A DNA stretch of 62,442 bases, the filler included, from Rhabdomonas costata (lineage: Eukaryota), in NCBI GenBank assembly GCA_019059605.1. It is 22 parts of 22 records of this genome, joined end to end, with 100 filler letters (N's around TTAATTAATTAA, not from the genome) between each part and the next. Parts side by side here need not be neighbours in the genome. Positions count along the whole stretch, not along the records: positions 11,412 to 14,155 come from JAHMHO010002173.1; 21 more parts are not named here. The stretch is one strand, 5' to 3'. The first letter of the stretch is position 1; the number at the start of each line of letters is the position of its first letter. Under the pieces are notes generated by a model that was not told where the DNA came from, searched no databases, and was given only the letters and a program-made list of their open reading frames with translations. The translations under genes and the position numbers were made by a program. Positions 8,565 to 45,511 of this stretch are shown piece by piece.

Positions 8565-8591
8565 GTGTCGGGTGTGTTTGGTGGTGGGTGG
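8565..8591 (+). other. WGA adapter remnant (GenomePlex-type) plus G/T degenerate primer tail
   Basis: GTGTCGGGTGTGTTTGG differs at one base from GTGTTGGGTGTGTTTGG and is followed by ten G/T bases. Reverse-complement equivalents lie at 2721-2747 and about 16971-16996. Confidence 0.85.
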
Positions 8592-8799
8592 GCCTGCGTT
8601 CGTCGTTTCTGACCCCATAACCCTCTCACTCTCTTGTTCCCTGCTTGTTGCCGATCTACTTGTGAATTCTCTTCCTCTCATTGTTGCCGTTGTTGCTATT
8701 GCTGTTGGTGTTTTTTAAGAACTACCTTTGGTCCTTCTTATCCCCTTGTCATCACCACTACCACCAACGTCACCGTCTGCGTCCCATTGTCGTGCCTAG

Positions 8800-11005
8800 C
8801 GCTGGGTGACACCCTCAAGCCGCGGTCAGCGGAGGCTGCCGAGGAGGCTGGCGGGCCAAACAAGGGAGGCGCTGCGAAGGTCAGCAACGATGTCCTCGCC
8901 GTGGCTACCAATGAGTACAAGATCAAGCTGTTCAGCACGGACAGCAACAGGTCTGAGCAATCCTGTGTGGTCAATGCTTGTTCTGCTGCTCTCCTGCCCC
9001 TCCTCGGTCACCCATCCAGCTCACCCTTCCTCCTTCTCACGAGTGTAGCACTTTCCGCACTCTTGTAACAGATCTCTGGACATCACAAATGTCAGCAAGG
9101 GTGATCGTTGCCATGATTGTGAGGCAACAATGCGCTCAAGTGCGAGTCTATGGATAAACTTGTCCTCTCGTGCATGAGGCATGTGCAGTTGGTCCTATGA
9201 ACGTTTGTAAGGTGATGTGTGGGTTGGGTCTGCAGGCAGTGCATCCAGACCATCCTGGGGCCGACGTATGGCGGGCCGATCAACAGCCTGATGGTAATCT
9301 CGCAGCAGGGCACGGTGGGACAGTGCCTGGTATACACCACACACGAGAAGGTCGTGGGGCTGGTGCAGCTCCCGCTGGACGGGAACCCCCGCAAGGCGAT
9401 GGGCCTGCTGGCCCACCCCATGGAGATCTCCAGCGCGGCCGTCAGCTACGACGGTCGATATCTCTTTACTAGCGGAGGTGTGACTTGCTCCTTCGGGCTT
9501 TCCTACCCCCACTCACTTTTTGAGTTGTAGCCATACAAATCATTCATGGGTCGATTGTTTTTTGCTTTCGTTTTCGCACGAGATTCGCAGGCTCGGAAAT
9601 GTGCTTGTTTTCTTTCGGCTTCTCGGAACGGAATGGTGTGCGCTGTGACAAAGCTAAGCATGCAGCCTGCTTGTCTGTGGCCTCAAATAGTCGCCTCTTC
9701 ATCTCCCCTTCTCTCCCTTATTCCTTACTCTTCTCGCAGGTCGGGATTGCTGCGTGAACCAGTGGGCCATTCACGGGGAGCAGCTCCAGGTTTCCGTGGG
9801 AGTGTTTTTGTGGCAGTTGCACTCCAGTGAGTTCATTCATTGGCAGAAACGAACCATGCGCAAACTCGGGGAAGTGAGGTCCAGAAGTGCTAACACGGGC
9901 TTTCACAGCGACTTTGTCTTCGCGACCGTGAGTCCTGCGGGGGGGGGGTACATTCATGGTATTCCGTTTTCATTTTGCTTTATTTTCATCCTTGCACCAC
10001 CACCACTGAGCCTTCTTCAAAAGACCCCAAAGATTTCTAGGCATTGACTGAGCGTATGTAATTGAAGGCGTACATCAAAATGGACGAAGGGGGATTGGGG
10101 CCCCAGGTTTCATTTTGCTGAGATTACAATTCTCCTCTCGCACTCTATTCTGCACTTTCAGTTTTTCAATTTCTTCCTATAATACTCAAGAAGGTTGGAG
10201 AAACAGATCGCTGGCAATCTTGTTCAATGTCACTCGGAAACTATCTTGGGCCTTTGAAGTTTTGCATTGGCTGCCTCCCTGTGGCATCCTTCCCTTCCAG
10301 GTGGTCATTTGGTGACATCCTTCTTCTAGGTGCACGATGGACGTCCGATTGTGGACCATTACATTGATGTGATTGAGGGAGGCAAGGACGGAGACTTTAT
10401 GAAGGAGATTATCGACTACTTTTACTACGCTCAGATCCGGTGTGCCCGCAGCCTGCTGGTGTTGGTGTCTTGTACTTGTGGGAACAGATAGAACTGACTG
10501 TAGGGCGGGTTCCGGGGGTAGGTATCGATCGAGTTCGGGAGTTTGGTTACGTAGATTATGACATTCGTTTAGGTAAGCACTTGGGACTTAGCGCGGCCAA
10601 GGCATCATGGATGGGATGTCGAGGAATTATAAATTGAGGAATTAATTAGCGTCAGACGTGAGCGTGCTTCAAGCACCGAAAATGTGTTCCGCTCTCATCT
10701 CTCCGGCCTATCTGTCCAGGAGCCAGGGTGAGGAGACCACTGCAAAGCGCAAGATCGAGGGTAAGATCCCGTTCACTCAGGTGCCCAATCTGATGCGCGC
10801 GCTGGGGTACTACCCCAGCGAGAAGGAGATCCACAACATGACCTACGAGATCTACACCCGCTTTGGCAAGGTGGTGGGTAGCGGGACATCTACATCGACT
10901 TCGAGGCCTTTATTCGCCTCTACGTCAACCACCGTCCTGTGTTTGGGATCAACAAGAAGAACATCTCCAACGCCTTCGCGGAGATCGGCGCGGACCCAGC
11001 CTCAG
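8800..11005 (+). CDS. CFAP251: Cilia- and flagella-associated protein 251 (WDR66), C-terminal WD40 plus EF-hand-like region, partial
   Basis: GT-AG exons 8800-8950, 9236-9477, 9740-9789, 10330-10439 and 10720-11005 splice in frame. Motifs: NEYKIKLF, TILGPTYGGP, LPLDGNPRKAMGLLAHP, LFTSGGRDCCVNQW, IEGGKDGDFMKEIIDYFYYAQIRSQG, MRALGYYPSEKEI and LYVNHRP. There is one frame disruption at about 10871-10884. Confidence 0.93.
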
Positions 11006-11411
11006 GTGCTAACCTGACCTCACCTTCCCACTTTGGGCTCTCACTCTATCCTGTGTCATTTCCCTGCGTGCACAGCGCTGATTGAGCGGCGAGACTTTCT
11101 TTCATAGAAATGCATGCGTGACGCGCTGAAGAGTTGAACAAACAATTCAACGGAGCCATTACTTCCAATTCGGTTGGTAATGTTTGCTTTGGCTTTTTCC
11201 CATTCCTCACTTAATGGCGGGTGTGTGAAATCTCTAGGCTTCACTTGCTCCGCTCGTGTAGTTGGCGTAAGATTGGAGTGCCATTGAGTGAGGAATGGGA
11301 AAAACCCAACANNNNNNNNNNNNNNNNNNNNNNNNNNNNNNNNNNNNNNNNNNNNTTAATTAATTAANNNNNNNNNNNNNNNNNNNNNNNNNNNNNNNNN
11401 NNNNNNNNNNN

Positions 11412-14155
11412 TTGTTGGGTGGAAGCGGCCATCTCGAAAAACCCCGCCGCAGGAAAATAGCTGTTCCTCCAGTGCCCGAAAGCAGGATTGGAAGCGCTGA
11501 CTACGGCCTCACTCAGCCAACACTGGCCGTCTGAGTAGCAAGACCACAGCTGATTCCGGGCCCAGGGGTACAAAGGCAACCTAGCAAGGCAGCCCCGAGG
11601 CACAGCAGCGCTCCAGGTGATTGAGGCCCCGGCCAAGTATACATCACGAAGATTCAGGTATAGAGGTCTTCTCTTGGTCCGACCGTTAGCGTGGTGACAG
11701 AATCCCACGCGAAGAACAAACAGGTTTGCGCACGAACGCGCGAGGTAGGCATGCAAGGGCTGGGGCTGTTTTTCCTCATCGGAAAAGCCTGAAAGCGCGT
11801 CTTCATTGGTGGTGAGCTTACCTGTTCCTGCGTTGACCAGCGCAACACCGTTTGAACTTAATTTTGTCTTCAGTTTGTAAGGCCAGTGGGCAGCTGCAAT
11901 GGAAAGGGCGTCTTTCAAACCAAGCACACCTCCGGCAAAAGCAGCTGCGAGTTCGCCCACTCCATAGCCACACACAACAAGAGGTTTCACACCCCATGAG
12001 GCCCAAACACGAAGAAGGCAAATGTGAGCTGTCAGTGAGGCAAGCCTGCGACGAGAGGCAGAATGAACACGGCTGGCGTCCTCAAAAATATCATCGAACG
12101 AAACAGGTTGAATCCCAACCAAACGCAGACATTCGTTAATTTCTCCAAGAGAGCTACGAATAACATCACTTGCGTGCATGTCAACTCTCGAAAGGAAAGG
12201 GTCTGAGCCGAACACCACCGCCACTCCTGCAAAGGAAGGTGCAGCAGTACGGGTTTCCGACAGCTGAGCTTCGAGTTGAGTAATCACGTCTGTAGGGTTT
12301 GAGCCCACAACGCATACACGAAAGGGCCAGTGTACTCGTCGGCAAGCAGCCGTATAGCTGATGTCGCGGAGTGCAGCGCATCGTGGTCCACTCAAAAGAG
12401 CAATGTAAGACCTCATCAAAACCCGAAGGGAACCAACAGATTTGGCAGAAATTGGGATGATGACCTGGCCCAAGGAATTCACGGTGTCACCCAGTCCAGC
12501 AACACCCTCGGCAATACAGTGGGCATTAGTTCCACCAAGTCCAAACGAACTGGTCCCTCCCGTTCTTCTTCCAATCCACGATTCTGCTTCTGAGACAACC
12601 CTCAGGCGCTGCTGAGTGAACGCAATATCGGGATTTGGATTTACAAAGTGAAGGGAAGCTGGAATTGTGCCACGGTGCACTGCCAATACCAATTTCAGCA
12701 GCCCAGTGATTCCAGCGGCAGCCTCCGTGTGACCAATGTTCGTCTTCACAGAGGCAATCAGAAGAGGACGCACTCGACCAGTGCACAAGGCTTCCGACGT
12801 GGCATGGGCCTCAATGACGTCGCCCACCTTCGTCCCGGTCCCGTGCATTTCAACAAAGACAACGTCTGCAGGCTCAACAGCAGCCTCTCGGCAGGCGGAG
12901 CGAATAACCTGGGCAACAGACTGAGGGTTAGGCGTGGTGAACCCAGAGCCACCTCCATTATGAACAACCGCAGAGCCAGTTAGCACACTAAGCGCCGAAT
13001 CTTCGGGATTAATGTTGGTGAGCTGTCTTAAAACAGCAAAAGCGCATCCTTCGGCTCTCACCATTCCATCCGCGTCAGCGTCGAATGCTCGGCAGACGCC
13101 CGATGGAGATAGCACTCCCAGCTTTTGCAAGGCAGTGTGCACAGCAGGGCCAAGGATGACGTTAACTCCACCAACAAGCGCGATAGCACAGTCCCGCGCT
13201 CGAAGTCCTTGTCTGCCAAGGTGAAGGGCGACAGCCGACGAAGAGCTCGCGGTATCAACCACCAGACTGGGACCAGACGAATTCAGCACAAAGGAGACCC
13301 GGTTAGCAACGCTGCAGGTCAACTCTCCTGTGAACGTGTAGACGGTTGGCGAAGCCCAATCCGGTTTCCATTCAGTCTGACCAGCGCCGACAAACACACC
13401 TATTGATTCCAGATCCCCGTTGAGAAGGCCAGCATCTTCCACCGCTTCCCACGCTACTTCCAAAGTTAACCGCTGCTGAGGGTCCATCGACGAAGCTTCC
13501 GACGGACTAATGCTGAAGAATTCAGGGTCAAAGTCCAAAGGGCTGTCTTCGAGATAGCCTGTTTTGTGTTCCAGGCCCAAACCTAATCGATTGCTGGGAG
13601 GGGCGCCGACCGCGTGCTTGCCATTCTTCAGAAGCATCCAGAAGTCATCTTTGCAGTTCACATTACCAGGAAGTCTGCAAGCAAGACCAACAACGGCTAT
13701 TTTTTCGCTGCGGACATCCGGATCTGGACTAGAACGAAAGAACCCAGCCTGAATCTGAGTTGGAGTCCCAGTCAAAAACTTGCACAAACCACGGACCGTA
13801 GGGTATTGGAAAAACAGCGCAGGTGAAACGGACGATCCAATTCGATCACTCAGACCACGTGCCAAGGGGCCCAGCATCACCGACGTGACACCCAACAAAG
13901 GAAAAGGAGTGTCAATGTCGTCCAACGATATCTCAATGGTATCGATGAGAAAGCGCTGCAGGTCATCCTCAGCGGTCGTGAACAGTGGTGAACTATGCAC
14001 TGGCGTGTCACTCACCAGCTTCACAGGAGCTCTTGTCGTGAGGCAAGCTCCGGAACGAGCCACCCCGGCTAGGCGACGCAGTGTATTCAAATCCACCTTG
14101 CCCGCCGGGCTCAAAGGGACCACGTCCAAAACAAAATAGACGGTAGGAACCAGCC
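11412..14155 (-). CDS. Hybrid NRPS/type I PKS megasynthase fragment: adenylation-domain C-terminus, carrier protein, KS (Cys to Ser), AT (inactive motif), start of DH; open at both contig ends
   Basis: The frame is uninterrupted across the whole contig. Motifs in order: A10-like VPTVYFVLDVVPLSPAGKVD; carrier LGVTS (Ser at 13883-13881); KS IAVVGLACRLPG, MDPQQRL, DTASSSS, EMHGTGT, KTNIGHTEAAAG, SSFGLGGTNAH; linker LRDISYTAACRR; AT WGVKPLVVCGYGVGE; post-AT LPLYPWAR; DH-like GHWRNSYFPAAGFFEMA. Confidence 0.95.
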
Positions 14156-14899
14156 NNNNNNNNNNNNNNNNNNNNNNNNNNNNNNNNNNNNNNNNNNNNT
14201 TAATTAATTAANNNNNNNNNNNNNNNNNNNNNNNNNNNNNNNNNNNNNNNNNNNNTTTTGTGTGGGGCACTGCCATTGCCACAAGTTAAGAACTGCAGTT
14301 GTTGTAATCGGAAACGTGACGTGGCACGGGGCAAACTCATATTCGTGCACGTGTTGGAGGAAAGGAAGTGAAGCATCCCAGGAAAGGCTAAGGTGCCTTT
14401 TTGGCGCTCTTTTGTTATCCAAGCTTCCCAGGGCTTCTACCTGTTCATCTCTCTTTTTTTTTTCTTTTTTGTTTTGTGTTTGTTGTCGCTCATTATTTTG
14501 CTGCTTTTATCAGTCGTTTCGCTCAACAATGGTCACAATCCCCGTTGGCGTCGAGGGAAATGAAAAAGGAAAAAGGGAAAGCTTAAGCTTCGCATGGACC
14601 GGGCAACGCCTTTTAGTCTTGGAGGATTGATCAGAGGTGACAATGTCTGCAATATTAATTGGAAAGTACTGACCGATGTGTTGTTGCACTACACCCTATC
14701 CCCCGGCGTTGGTTTCTGGCGACCGGCAGAGCAAGATGGTTCTTCTGTCTTTCAGACGTTCTGAAGTTCTTCACAACCTTTCATGAGTGCACCGCCAACA
14801 GAGGCGAACTTTGGTTCTGTTTGCGGTTTGTGGTGCAAATGCGTCAAGCCCCAATTGCAGCGCCAATACTCCTGATTGAGCCCCTTTCTTATGTTTCCG

Positions 14900-16490: not shown

Positions 16491-16589
16491 CAACGGAAGG
16501 AATTCACTACCACAATGGCGAAAGTCCCAACGTAGCGTCACCATCCTTGTCTGAAGCGCATGAGACCGTAACCCCAAAGGCAGGACACG

Positions 16590-16996
16590 CGAACCCCAAA
16601 CCCGAAACCGAAACCGAACCCAGAGACCGAATGCCGAACCTTGCCTACTAAATACGGCGACCGCGTCGGTGGAATAGGCGTTCCACCCCCTAAACCATCG
16701 GCATTGCCGTCATACGACACTCTTGCGAGATCCCGAAGGACGTCACGAACCCCGAATGCGAAACCAACCTCCCCGACACCAAAAACCCAAAGACCCAAAG
16801 GCAAGAACTCCGAACCCAATGCATCCTCGACTCGCAGACACTAATGAAGACCGAATATCCAACACCAACTCAGGAACCCAAGACCCGAAATCCAAAACCC
16901 AACCCCAAATTCCAAACCCCAAACACAAAAACCCAAGAGAGAAATCCAAAACCCCAAACTCAGAAACCCGAACCCCAACACCCAAACACACCCACA
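16590..16996 (+). repeat. Low-complexity A/C-rich degenerate simple repeat (AACCCnA-like)
   Basis: Repeated AAACCCGA, AAACCCCA and AAACCCAA words. Confidence 0.7.
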
Positions 16997-17096
16997 NNNN
17001 NNNNNNNNNNNNNNNNNNNNNNNNNNNNNNNNNNNNNNNNTTAATTAATTAANNNNNNNNNNNNNNNNNNNNNNNNNNNNNNNNNNNNNNNNNNNN

Positions 17097-18000
17097 TTTG
17101 TTTTTGTGTTTTTTATTTTTTTGACAACTTTTTATTTTTTGCGTTTTTTTTCGAGTGGGTATTTGTGCTTCGGTTCCGGTTTCGTGTTTCTGTGTTCCTC
17201 GGCCTTCTTGGCGTGGTTTTTATGTGTAGCGGTTTTTCGGGCTTCGGCGTTGAATTGTTTGTTTGGGTATTTGGGGTTTGGGTTCGGCATTGTGGTTCAG
17301 GTTCTTCCTTCGGTTCTAGAGACCTTTGGGTATTGGTTTGGTATTGGTGTACAGATGTGCCGGGGTTTGTACTTAGGGATTCTAGGCGTGGTGTTTATGG
17401 TGTGGGTATAGGGCTTGCTGGTGTACGTTAGTATGGGTATCGGTCTTATGGGTGTCGGGATTGGGTTTGGGTGTGCGGGTGTTGGCTTCCGTGTGCGCGT
17501 GCATGTTCTTTATGGTGTTAGGGCTAGGGTATAGGTGTTTAGGGTTATTGTATGTGAGTAGGGTGAGGGTGTAGGAGTAGGGTTGGAGCATCGTAATGGA
17601 GTCAAGGTGTTAGATATTGCCCGGTTTGGATGGATCTTGTGGTTGAAGTGTAGGAGTAGTGGTTGGTCATTGGGATTCGGAGTCTGGGTTCGGTCTTGGA
17701 GTTGGAGTGTTGGAGGTTGGGGCCTTGGTTTCCGTTGGTGTTGGATTGGCATAGGGATTGGGATAGTTTGGTTGTATCGGAGAGTATGGCCATTCGGGTG
17801 GAAGGTGAGTTAGTGGTTGGAGGGTGACGTTGGAGCGTGGATCTTGGCTGGGAGTGTCTGGGGTGTGGTGGTATTTGGTTGTGGTTGGGTGTCGGGGCGT
17901 TGGGAACTTGGGACTTGGGTGGTGGGTGCGATGGGTGGGTGGAGTGGAGTCGTGAGGGTAGAGGTGTCGTGGGGATGCGGGTTTGGAGGGCTGTGGTGCT
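17097..18000 (+). repeat. Low-complexity G/T-rich tract with degenerate TTAGGG-like words
   Basis: Strong G+T skew with words such as GTTAGGGCTAGGGTATAGG and TTTAGGGTT. No coding signal. Confidence 0.7.
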
Positions 18001-19339
18001 GACCCGACAGATGTCATTCCGGAAGACCGTGGCAACTGATTCATTGAATTCCTCCACGTCGTCTGGTCATGCGCCAAACGATCCATCCCTACATCCCGTC
18101 CTCTTAAGGCCAAACAAAGTTAAATGGTGATACGGTCTTGCTGTCAGAAGTGATGTGCGGTGTGGTGTCGGTGTCCGGTGTCAGGTGTCAGGTTTATGGT
18201 GAGGTGTCGGGATGTCGGATGGAGAGTTTGATTTCGTGTGTCGGCAATTCTCGCGCCTGTTTGTTTCTGAATTGCAGTTCCGGTTCCGGTTTCTGTTTAA
18301 GTCCTTCTGGATGTCCTGTTGTGCCGGGGTATGGGCAAATGAGCGTGGTTGTAGCCTCTGGTGTTCGTTTGTCTGGAAACATTGGTGCCCCACTTCGTAA
18401 ACATTTCTAGGTCAGGCGTTTCGAACGACCGGACTTTAGTGTCGAGCGCGCAAAGGCAAGAGTGGGCAACGACATTTCTTTGGGTTGCGTTCACGGGTAC
18501 AATGTCTTTGTCCGGCTTTCTGTTACCTTTTGGGTTGCGGTAGGGTGTCTTCGAACTGGCAACATTAAAAGTGAACGCACGGGGTAGCCCACCACAGCAA
18601 CGCACAGGGAGAACACACACAGAAGCCGGAAAGGAGAAGCCCAGAAAAACAGGCGGGGTGCAACAGCTTTTACAAGGGGGACGCCCCCTGTTCTTTAACC
18701 GCGCCTCGTTTCATACTTCTTTATAAACGCCAGCCCTTTCATGCGGAGCCCGCGCACGTCCGACGCGAAGGCGCGGTCCAAGAAGAAAGACGAAGGCACC
18801 AAGAGAGCCACACAGAAGCACCAGCCGGGAGGTGGAGACCACATCGGACGGAGGCGACCCCACCCAAGGCAACGCAAAAATAAGCGTGCAAACGGAGGTT
18901 GCGGGACGGCAGGCAGATACGAAGTCAGCCGAACATCTTCACTTATTCACCTTCTCATACATCGTAGCTAGGCTTTCCCTTTGGCCCTTTGGTAGTTTTG
19001 GTTCTTTTTTGCGTTTTCGTTGTGTTTTTTTCCCCTTTTCGAAACGTGAACCCTGAATTAAAAACCTGATGACAGCTGGAACATTTCTTTCAACTCGCAC
19101 ACTTGTCCAAACGGCACAACGCGCAAATTCTCTCATTAGTTGATGAGCAGCGTCGGGTGGTGACATCCGGAAAAGCAGTCTCGTGCATGAAATGAGACAA
19201 GGCAAGGAGGATGCATGCTTCCGTTGTGTCAAAAGAATGGTAGCACAAGCACGCAACTCCTTAGTGTCCAACTCAGGGATCCGCGATGGAGCGAAGCAAG
19301 CGCAGGTTCCTCGGCCAAAAAACAGAATGACACAGAGCC

Positions 19340-42665: not shown

Positions 42666-44609
42666 TGTGGGGGGGGAGCGGAAGGTGGGGGAGCTTTGAA
42701 GCGTGCTTCCTGTCGGGTCGGGGTAGCCCGGGGCCCCGCCCTCTTGGAACGGTCAATAACGTTCCACATGATCAGGGAAAACTGCGAGGCGTTGGGGATA
42801 CACACGCTGACGTCGTACCAGTAGTCGAAGAAGCTGGCCTTGCAGACACACCCGTTGGAGTCCTCAACAAACTCCAGAAAGGTCTGCTTCGCCTCCTGCT
42901 CGGACACCTTCTTCGCCAAAACTTCGGGCAGCTGGGATGGCCGGAAGCGGGGCAGCAGGGCATCGAAGCTACAGCTGGGGCTGTTGTCCGGGTCGAGCAG
43001 AGCCCATGTCTGTGCAATGATCTCCCGCTTGGCGGCGGGAATTTCTCCACGGAGGGCGGTGAGAAAGCTTGACATATTAAGCTGGTCGGGGCTCTCTTCG
43101 GTGTGGGCGTTGTACAGGGACTCCAGCTCAACGTCGGAGAGTGTGCTTCCGACCCCAACGTTTCGTACTGCGGACACGAACTCCCATAAGGTCAAACAAG
43201 CCGTGGAGGACTCGCGACGAAACTGCAGCTGCAGGCGAAGGACTCCGTTTCCTCCTCGGTGGGTGAGCGCGCCACGCAGTTTATAGTGGAAGTGATCCAA
43301 GAGAACAGGGCTGTCATCGTGCCCCACCTCTGGTCGCAGGGAGGACACAAAGGCGTCGATGCTGCGCAGCCGGCCAGGCTGAGCCGGGTCCGCGGAGCTT
43401 TCAAAGAGGAGATCGAGCTCTCGGTCCATCAGCCCCGCACCAAAGGTTTGCATGCCCTTTTTGAAGTTCTCCTTGGACATGGTTCCTGTGCGGTCAGCAG
43501 CACACCTCTTCAGCACCCGCAGGAGCCCAACCGTCCCGCTGGTGGCGCGGTCGCGGTCGCGGCAGGCGTCAATGAGCTTCTGCCGAATCTCAGAGAGCGG
43601 TACCTCCTCCCGGCTGAGAATATGGAGGATCTCCTCCACATCGACGAACTCAATGGGGGACACACTTGTGGACTTGATGTGGTGAAACAAGAAGCACAGC
43701 TCAGAGACGGTCACGCCCAAGTGGAGACCATCCAGGGCTCTTACAAACTGGCCGCGGCTGACAGAACGGCCACCTCCCTGGGTGAGGCATTCTGCAACTG
43801 CGGAACGGAAGTTTGCAGTAAACTTCCCGCAAAGCCTGCTTTTCAGCTTCTTAACGATATCGTCGGCTTGCTGCTGGGTCATGTCAAGCTTGAGGCGGAC
43901 AGCGACCAAAAAGTCGTCGTAGTCAAGCTCACCTGTAAGCAAGGGAAGGTGGATTCGAATGAGACACAACGTTTTCCAAGCTCCGAAAAAGATAGTGCAC
44001 CCACAACGCGCAACACAACTCATTTCTTTATAGAAAACATCGGAGACCCAATTCAGGAAGCAGGCAAAGAGTGTCACTGTTTTTGAGGCTGGGATGGCTT
44101 GCCGAATATACAATGACCTATAAAAGGACTTCACCCAATGCAACAGGGAAAGAGATTAATTTCAAGAAGGCAACGAAAGTGTCACAACATCTCAGGGTGA
44201 AATTAGAAAATACCGTCTTCGTCCGTGTCGTGCACAATGAACAGGGCTTCGATCTCCTTCCCGGTCAGTTTGAGATCCGCAGTTTGGAAGAACTTTCGCA
44301 ACTCCCAAACTGTCAGGCGCTGCGGCCACGACTTGTCAATCGCTGCAAACTGAGGCGTCAGCTTGGGAATCCCGTTAACCCCCCGCAGCATAAGAAGGGC
44401 TTTCAGCTTGCGGAATATCCGGTCCACCTTCACCCCATCTTGTGCTATCGTGGCGGCATCCTCTTGCGCGTCCAAGGTCCCTGAGGTGGTGAAGCTATTC
44501 GCGCTCTGTGTTTCCCAATGGTGGGGAGAGCCTCCGCCACCAACGCTGCTCCGCATTTTGTCGTATGATTTGATAAAATCAAGATCGAGATCGGTGGAGC
44601 TGATCCTGG
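42666..44609 (-). CDS. Calcyphosin-like multi-EF-hand protein, partial
   Basis: Exon 44609-44214 (LRGVNGIPKL...FIVHDTDEDG) is spliced GT-AG to a long exon 43932-<42666 (ELDYDDFLVAVR...LRGEIPAAKREIIAQTWALLD...FFDYWYDVSVCI...FSLIMWNV). These are calcyphosin-type repeats. Confidence 0.82.
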
Positions 44610-45511
44610 CTTGAACGAAACGGAGAAAACGGGCAATGAACGAACACGCTCACAGTCTGCCTGGAAGCAAATGAAACCGGAACGTTCCGACTGTAATCAA
44701 CCAATGCAAAGTCGAGAAACCGATTCACAAATTCCGCACGTACTTGAAAGAAAACGAAGAAAGGAGGGATCCAATCTGTGCTGGAAACTGCATGATGGTC
44801 GCATGTATTTCACTCCAAACGCACAGACAACGTGCGTAAGGGGTTCATTTTCCTTTTCCTCACTCCCTCGCACTCACCGGCACGTCACTTCCTACCCGCA
44901 AGTGCGTTTCGCTTGTGATTGCCTAGTGGCCAACGCCCACCGCCGAGCGCAGGGAACCCAATCGCTGCCAAACTGGCCCCCGGTGACAGCAAAAGACAGT
45001 GCACCGACAGGGCGCCGCCCTTTAGCTGAGGCAGAAAAGCTATGACGGAACTTCACATATCAGCCGCAAGCTGCTGTATCCGTTTTGCAGGGAGAACCCT
45101 TCCCCACTGGGGAAGCAGTGGTCGTCACCGACTTCCCACCAATAGCTAGCTGGCCACACCCCGCGTGAATATCGAGCCCAGATGAGAACCTGATGAGAAA
45201 ATCACGATAAAACAAATCAAAATGGACGCCATTCAAAAACCGTTTGATTCAGACCTCCCGTCACCTTCCAGCCGCAAAAGGCACAGCTGCAAACACCTGC
45301 GAAGACTAAATCGGATGCGAGACGGAGCACAGTGTTTCTCAGCACATTAAGGATGAACCCCACACCTTTGGCCGCCAACCACACTTTTAGTCGTCCCCAA
45401 AACANNNNNNNNNNNNNNNNNNNNNNNNNNNNNNNNNNNNNNNNNNNNTTAATTAATTAANNNNNNNNNNNNNNNNNNNNNNNNNNNNNNNNNNNNNNNN
45501 NNNNTGTGGGT

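Follow-up and report, generated by a model that had tools for sequence, protein, structure and literature searches.

Known starter modules and the present locus

A start with an adenylation (A) domain and a carrier, together with very long exons, is presented as normal for protist giant PKSs (PKZILLA preprint; PMC7073580). PKZILLA-1 begins with ANL-ACP and has 17 exons in ∼137 kb (PKZILLA preprint), a common algal architecture is an A-T pair followed by PKS modules (PMC10794256), loss of the acyltransferase (AT) is described as the rule in protist giant PKSs (PMC4661987), and protistan ketosynthases (KSs) are reported to form a clade (PMC5029157). Euglena gracilis is credited with 14 PKSs and 19 NRPSs, and none of the euglenatide genes is assigned (PMC9321709, PMC11703798, PMC13683363). 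The order ligase-carrier-KS(S)-AT is known in RimA and related polyene starters (PMC4540446). In DEBS, condensation is lost upon mutation of Cys to Ala, and KS-Q domains are described as decarboxylating (PMC7327777).

The locus studied here is one contig, C2173, of the assembly G000 (97.2 Mb, split over 104,289 contigs, to which all C-numbers refer). An A/ANL-carrier start, exons of great length, a majority of modules whose AT is missing or dead, and embedded ECH and HMG-CoA-synthase domains are shared with Chlamydomonas PKS1, PKZILLA-1, the haptophyte "semi-trans-AT" PKSs and the E. gracilis megasynthases, a likeness by description, with the sequences of these proteins lying outside our KS trees. 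In the giant PKSs, however, KS0 lacks the His, whereas in C2173 the KS after the carrier lacks the Cys. The full T1PKSs of E. gracilis are reported to be cis-AT, whereas the G000 modules keep AT remnants of several grades. With RimA/PimS0 (CoL-ACP-KS(S)-AT-ACP) and NysA (KS(S)), C2173 shares an adenylating domain, a carrier, a KS with Ser for Cys and an AT, a likeness that is architectural and read without aligning the proteins. RimA/PimS0 has an intact AT followed by an ACP, whereas the AT of C2173 is dead and followed by a dehydratase (DH) scrap, and its A tail is NRPS-like. The nearest KSs, at 48–49% by BLAST and in three trees, are those of bacterial KS-Q loading modules (e.g. the first KS of P0039, Amycolatopsis), which have the same short N-terminal loop and kept His-His pair. 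The bacterial domains carry Gln, are N-terminal and have a working AT, whereas the KS of C2173 carries Ser, is preceded by A-T and has a non-functional AT.

We consider it fairly probable that C2173 is a long-exon piece of a euglenid nuclear gene and represents the starter region of a giant modular type I PKS whose other modules lie on unlinked contigs. This kind of system is already known, but a starter with a Ser-type KS is unusual. The literature searched, mostly open-access main texts, yielded no account of a Ser-type KS in any PKS from a protist.

A single open frame fills an unlinked contig

The window, i.e. the whole stretch of 62,442 nucleotides that was analyzed, consists of 23 unlinked contigs or scaffolds of ∼2.74 kb each, joined by N/TTAATTAATTAA/N spacers. 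The stretch under study (11412–14155) is the whole of contig C2173 and is bounded on both sides by spacers (11312–11411 and 14156–14255) that are artificial and not biology. Because it fills the whole contig between them, C2173 has no linkage to other parts of the window, and the neighboring genes were rejected as genomic context, the joins being artificial. No end overlaps extending C2173 were detected among the G000 contigs.

The initial annotation had described 2.74 kb open from end to end, and translation confirmed this: on the minus strand, a frame of 914 codons (11412–14153; protein P0001) fills the contig with zero stops and is open at both ends. It had also called the other exons of the window shorter, which agrees with our finding that the next frame has 496 codons and one exon ∼417 codons, on other contigs. 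Judged from translation and composition only, the window further contains an intron-rich WD-repeat/EF-hand flagellar-type gene (8565–11311), an EF-hand gene with a 1.25 kb exon (42666–45404), a retrotransposon-like contig (51183–53926) and G/T-rich repeats with strong skew (16500–18100).

Domain anatomy of the module

The domain order proposed earlier, A(C-term)-T-KS-AT-DH, stands in outline and needs correction in detail, with a Ser-type KS, a truncated and dead AT, and a DH reduced to a scrap. All domains lie on the minus strand. The frame begins with the C-terminal tail of an A domain (14064–14153), and residues 1–30 of P0001 align in register with the end of the NRPS-type A domain in P0486. 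Only ∼30 residues of this domain are present, and its remainder, including the substrate pocket, lies beyond the contig end. The conserved Lys at residue 19 belongs to what we take to be an NRPS-like adenylation-domain motif. The carrier (thiolation) domain (13773–13955; residues 67–127, PF00550, E 4e-8) keeps its attachment Ser91 in the motif GVTS.

The KS (12504–13706; residues 150–503 in Pfam, supported by alignment) resembles the loading type, with Cys replaced by Ser and both His and the Lys kept. Near its N terminus, ∼12 residues are deleted. The spacing of the N-terminal loop is 52, compared with a median of 64 among the 465 KSs of the Cys type and of 57 among the 211 of the Gln type (685 of 1,170 KSs were parsed), and a spacing of ≤62 also occurs in 97 of the 465 Cys-type KSs. 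The codon at the active-site position, Ser303 (AGC, 13245–13247), is one base from a Cys codon. The call therefore depends on one base, which counts against the starter reading, and base-level variation is seen elsewhere in the assembly, where the overlapping contigs C12068 and C84458 differ by one base.

A KS-AT linker domain of the canonical cis-AT type follows (12273–12461; residues 565–627, PF22621, E 3.5e-10); it is absent from the other measurable G000 modules. The AT remnant (11754–12236, ends approximate) was recognized by alignment and by a weak Pfam match below cut-off (residues 707–769, 23.6 versus 32.7 bits). In this remnant GYGVG replaces GHSxG, the Arg is substituted, and the C-terminal half with the HAFH motif is deleted. 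The post-AT linker (LPLYPW; 11541–11660), assigned from weak in-register matches to CurL and DEBS, lies 313 residues after the KS, compared with 418–464 in intact cis-AT modules, and is thus ∼105–150 residues nearer to the KS. The frame ends in a degenerate DH-like start (11412–11540) that is cut by the contig end and has its catalytic His out of register. This scrap consists of one short motif, with a custom-profile score of 4.8 bits that was equalled by 3 of 500 shuffles, and Pfam gave no DH match in P0001. Comparison of the AT/DH tail with C13347 yielded no significant pairwise match, an Atlas search with residues 560–914 returned generic AT clusters only, and a single-sequence fold was unusable (pLDDT 35).

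With KS, carrier and further domains fused in a single frame, P0001 has the organization of a modular type I PKS. The KS Cys-His-His triad, the AT motifs (GHSxG, Arg, HAFH/YASH) and the DH His motif that mark an elongating cis-AT module are not all in place in any of the three domains. As in KS-Q and KS-S loading domains, the Cys is replaced by a residue of the Gln/Ser class and the His residues are kept, but the residues of an own active AT, by which a loading module loads malonyl, are missing. Although the outline domains are present, none of the three PKS enzymes therefore looks canonical.

Further PKS contigs of the assembly

Through family searches in G000, 15 additional contigs were found to encode PKS parts in long open frames; with C2173 the set amounts to 28.1 kb. 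The 15 contigs, together with the lack of any close relative wherever searched, support the earlier proposal that the fragment is part of an undescribed assembly line. These contigs carry at least seven distinct KSs, several DHs, two KRs, two ERs, ECH domains and a dead-looking HMG-CoA synthase. End overlaps join C12068-C84458-C3566, C21970-C19999 and, via an inverted end, C20270-C13347; the breaks between the PKS contigs are attributed to identical KR stretches. Carrier-KS joins are present on C21970, C24731 and C84458/C3566, none of which is overlapped by C2173. Against the reading as part of a host PKS, C2173 has no physical link to an intron-bearing contig or to another PKS contig, and its putative membership in a single gene with the other modules, like its predicted N-terminal position, is inferred.

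The ATs of these modules are graded: intact in C20270/C13347, without the Ser in C3566, decayed in C19999 and C2173, and absent in C1442 and C4552. The C20270/C13347 AT, with a malonyl-type motif, is the sole intact one, and C37794 encodes a free-standing FabD-like AT. C4552 has in-frame stops and a YAG immediately 5′ of its KS, and 457 non-coding bases lie at the end of C2361; both features count in favor of the host-gene reading. On the minus strand of C2361 (L049, ∼990–830), the KR end motif shifts frame while the carrier remains in the first, which represents either an unusual intron or a frameshift. An intron-free HMG-CoA-synthase-like frame with an altered Cys motif is found on C12728 (L102), and C2489 (L048) carries a DH followed by ECH domains. 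The two contigs are probably the β-branching part of the same PKS. An exhaustive search for homologues of the DH-ECH contig revealed no close relative, with top matches at 23–37% identity and the exception of one 97-residue piece at 55%. The end of C20270 and the start of C4552 are inverted or fold back as hairpins, as is typical of amplified DNA, and suggest whole-genome amplification.

The absence of catalytic residues from KS, AT and DH alike would fit a pseudogene in decay, left from a cis-AT line that formerly functioned, as would the dead ATs and the dead-looking HMG-CoA synthase on other contigs and the frame break near the KR end of C2361. However, the 914 codons are free of stops and long open frames extend over the other 15 contigs, where the motifs are preserved in the remaining KSs, in both KRs, in all carriers and in the four DHs whose His motif can be read. 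We regard such a pseudogene as very improbable.

Phylogeny of the KS domains

KS trees were calculated with 236, 84 and 53 of ∼1,170 KS domains. This reference set is biased toward hits of the C2173 query and contains none of the named sequences from algae and Euglena. The remaining seven KS pieces of G000, of which the smallest tree includes five, cluster with the choanoflagellate (Salpingoeca infusionum) PKS P0013 and with P0486, P0243 and P0378 (SH-aLRT 89 and 97). P0486, a hybrid from a JGI metagenome (C-A-T-KS-AT-KR-ACP-KS-DH...), and P0013 are sister to these seven pieces. P0486 shares the compact KS-AT join with the other G000 modules, and an active AT is present in one of its first four modules. 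In contrast to C2173, the KS after its A-T pair keeps the Cys and has no linker domain, and in the best trees the C2173 KS falls outside the P0486/P0013 clade. As a side observation, P0243 is labeled Amycolatopsis and P0486 is a metagenomic hybrid, yet both lie inside a choanoflagellate/euglenid KS clade; a label may be wrong, or the clade may have bacterial members.

The C2173 KS groups with N-terminal loading KSs (SH-aLRT 99 and 90) on a long branch (1.27), and 20 of the 22 members of this group in the largest tree are Gln-type. In AU tests (LG+G4, fast search, 2000 replicates only), p was 0.64 for the loading clade, 0.21 for monophyly of the G000 KSs and 0.044 for the protist-type clade. 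A KS phylogeny had been proposed as a check of the fragment's origin, and its outcome is divided: the best trees place the C2173 KS with bacterial loading KSs, but its branch is long and the AU test does not reject G000 monophyly (p 0.21), two points against the starter reading. Domain spacing is a character independent of the trees and agrees with them. The AT starts 21–28 residues after the KS in C3566, C19999, C20270 and P0486, whereas C2173 has the bacterial KS-linker-AT spacing. The KS and linker of C2173 appear to be of another lineage than those of the remaining G000 modules, and C2173 may be a separate gene. Of the earlier suggestion of horizontal acquisition, what stays plausible is an old, ameliorated event for the C2173 module only.

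These features allow a tentative and rather doubtful reading of C2173 as a chimeric starter, in which a bacterial loading module captured long ago now opens a euglenid giant PKS, which would be a eukaryotic convergence on the RimA/PimS0 design. The Ser-type KS would then decarboxylate or hand on what A-T delivers, and the AT would have died because the upstream A-T pair took over loading. It is likewise conceivable, if rather doubtful, that the intact, Ser-less, truncated and absent ATs in one line are a snapshot of a cis-to-trans AT transition, the order of which Shelest et al. reportedly left open.

Host or contaminant origin

The euglenid host is represented by an 18S rRNA with model positions 4–1116 spread over 1,842 bases and by an RPL7 exon whose best match is chain 6zj3_Lr (91.7 bits versus 77.7 for the next), from an entry that we take to be a Euglena ribosome. 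By sequence reading, the assembly also contains a land-plant-like 18S, an actinobacterial-type 16S and bacterial NRPS contigs, and together with the signs of amplification these made a contamination test necessary. Classed as contaminants were C25815, C63185, C20975, C61713 and C72865, which carry the plant-like 18S, the actinobacterial-type 16S and, of bacterial origin, two NRPS pieces and an acyl-CoA ligase. The rRNA searches, with part of the candidates scored, gave the euglenid and land-plant-like 18S and one actinobacterial-type 16S only, and no second protist 18S was seen among 24 of 222 candidates scored.

The codons had been described as less G/C-ending than those of host genes, and the GC3 is indeed 0.50, compared with 0.93 in RPL7 and 0.86 in NEK exons. 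The anomaly drawn from intron-free structure and low GC3 does not hold genome-wide, since exons of several kilobases with low GC3 occur in host genes as well and long intron-free frames are common. Among contigs C1–C40, the first-numbered and among the longest, frames of at least 600 codons occur in 8 and of at least 900 codons in 6, and in 6 of the 8 the GC3 is 0.52–0.55. An exon of >5 kb with a GC3 of 0.54 lies behind an intron-like acceptor on C19. C1 (L062:2622–6254, minus strand) carries an intron-free 1,211-codon α-L-rhamnosidase of a bacterial family with a weak SUEL lectin match, possibly an old transfer, and C39 (L100:2–3826) a Helitron-like frame with PIF1 helicase and GIY-YIG domains.

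Codon usage of the PKS set correlated at 0.88 with long host frames (n=7, the host status of most being deduced), 0.35 with short exons (3 of 21 intended exons were not located and were left out), 0.27 with bacterial contigs (n=3) and 0.46 with the Helitron. For C2173 alone the values were 0.63, 0.22, 0.17 and 0.40; weak bias discriminates weakly in this comparison, and the bacterial reference comprises 774 codons. The CpG ratio was 0.82, compared with 0.77–0.80 in host contigs and 0.99 in bacterial contigs. Cys makes up 2.41% of P0001 and reaches 2.2% or more in none of 326 bacterial-type PKS hits. In tetranucleotide composition, the correlation between C2173 by itself and the host contigs was only 0.20–0.23, which speaks against host origin.

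Homologues were 29–48% and 36–47% identical (120 listed hits each), and the best match reached 40% in the 80 genome loci that were kept and 37% in the 53 metagenome loci. In the word-based searches, bacterial proteins with multiple KSs crowded the results, and a single protein labeled as eukaryotic was returned. Near-identity to a characterized bacterial cluster and binning with a contaminant had been named as refuting observations. No relative exceeded 49% identity, and C2173 does not bin with the bacterial contaminants (three reference contigs).

DNA of a co-amplified organism, be it a bacterium, prey or another protist, would account for the bacterial NRPS contigs, 16S and plant-like 18S in the assembly, for top homologues that are all bacterial, for the bacterial cis-AT spacing of the module, and for the bacterial- or metagenomic-labeled proteins in the KS clade of the other modules. 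Set against this are the host-like codon, CpG and Cys signatures, the identities of ≤40% and ≤37% among the genome and metagenome loci, and the lack of a second protist 18S in the candidates scored; moreover, land plants are not known to have modular type I PKSs. A co-amplified source thus appears improbable, and the symbiont or prey suggested by the initial annotation is not supported, as the composition matches long host exons and the partly scored rRNA searches gave only three types. We infer host ownership from these signatures; the C2173 frame is real and intact, and most likely host-encoded.

Starter module or NRPS-PKS junction

The label NRPS-PKS hybrid given earlier is justified as far as an A tail and a carrier directly precede the KS; the hybrid nature is unproven because no condensation (C) domain, and no matching A body, was found. 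In G000, no intron-free C domain of matching style was detected, the only matches being two bacterial-looking contigs (3 of 3 candidates scored), and no intron-free NRPS A-domain body of matching style was found among 14 of 59 and 12 of 35 candidates scored. The candidates scored for the A body and the C domain were rejected as intron-rich host genes, an unrelated reductase-type A or bacterial contigs.

C2173 could nevertheless lie inside a true hybrid line encoded by the host, at a junction from NRPS to PKS (C-A-T-KS..., as in P0486). Residues 1–549 run collinear with the P0486 A-T-KS junction (35% identity), the A tail resembles those of NRPSs, and Euglena, with 19 NRPSs and 14 PKSs, makes hybrid euglenatides. 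Against such a junction, the C-domain matches are confined to the two bacterial-looking contigs, the loading-type features of the KS go beyond the single Ser codon, and AT and DH are dead too. We hold this reading to be unlikely. The same guarded view applies to its two accounts of the Ser, namely that the KS would pass on or slowly extend an aminoacyl chain via the Ser, or that the Ser would be an allele or an amplification error.

Contigs C3860, C8858, C278, C28515, C7223 and C4674 (L033, L021, L050, L035, L037 and L034) carry intron-rich host PKS/NRPS exons that encode KS, A, carrier and reductase domains and have high GC3 where measured. They form a second system and are candidates for a euglenatide-like pathway. 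C1273 (L032) and C44420 (L040) each carry a version of an intron-free carboxylic-acid-reductase-like A-T-R gene; the two versions are almost identical and match the PKS set in codon style.

Proposed function and implications

From its sequence features, C2173 is probably a piece of a host gene that encodes a non-elongating starter module of a giant PKS. The A domain would activate a carboxylic or amino acid and load it on the arm of carrier Ser91. Since a KS without Cys forms no acyl-enzyme, the KS of C2173, lacking the thiol, would not extend the chain, which leaves it either malonyl decarboxylation to a primer or a role as a retired spacer. In the first case, the kept His-His-Lys would decarboxylate malonyl to the primer, as in KS-Q and KS-S loading domains; in the second, KS, dead AT and DH would be a structural spacer, and the primer would move to the next module. 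We judge the two about equally probable. Extender units would come from elsewhere, either from the intact AT of C20270/C13347 or from the free-standing FabD-like AT of C37794.

The evidence comes from a 2.7 kb fragment of one assembly. It removes a false alarm, since in this host low-GC3 frames that are long and free of introns are nothing unusual. Should the Ser-type KS behind A-T prove real and active, it would be a priming route for which we found no description in protists. The graded decay of the ATs across the G000 modules bears on the origin of AT-less protist PKSs. As the genes for hybrid polyketide-peptides of euglenids are unassigned, pieces of euglenid megasynthases are useful leads.
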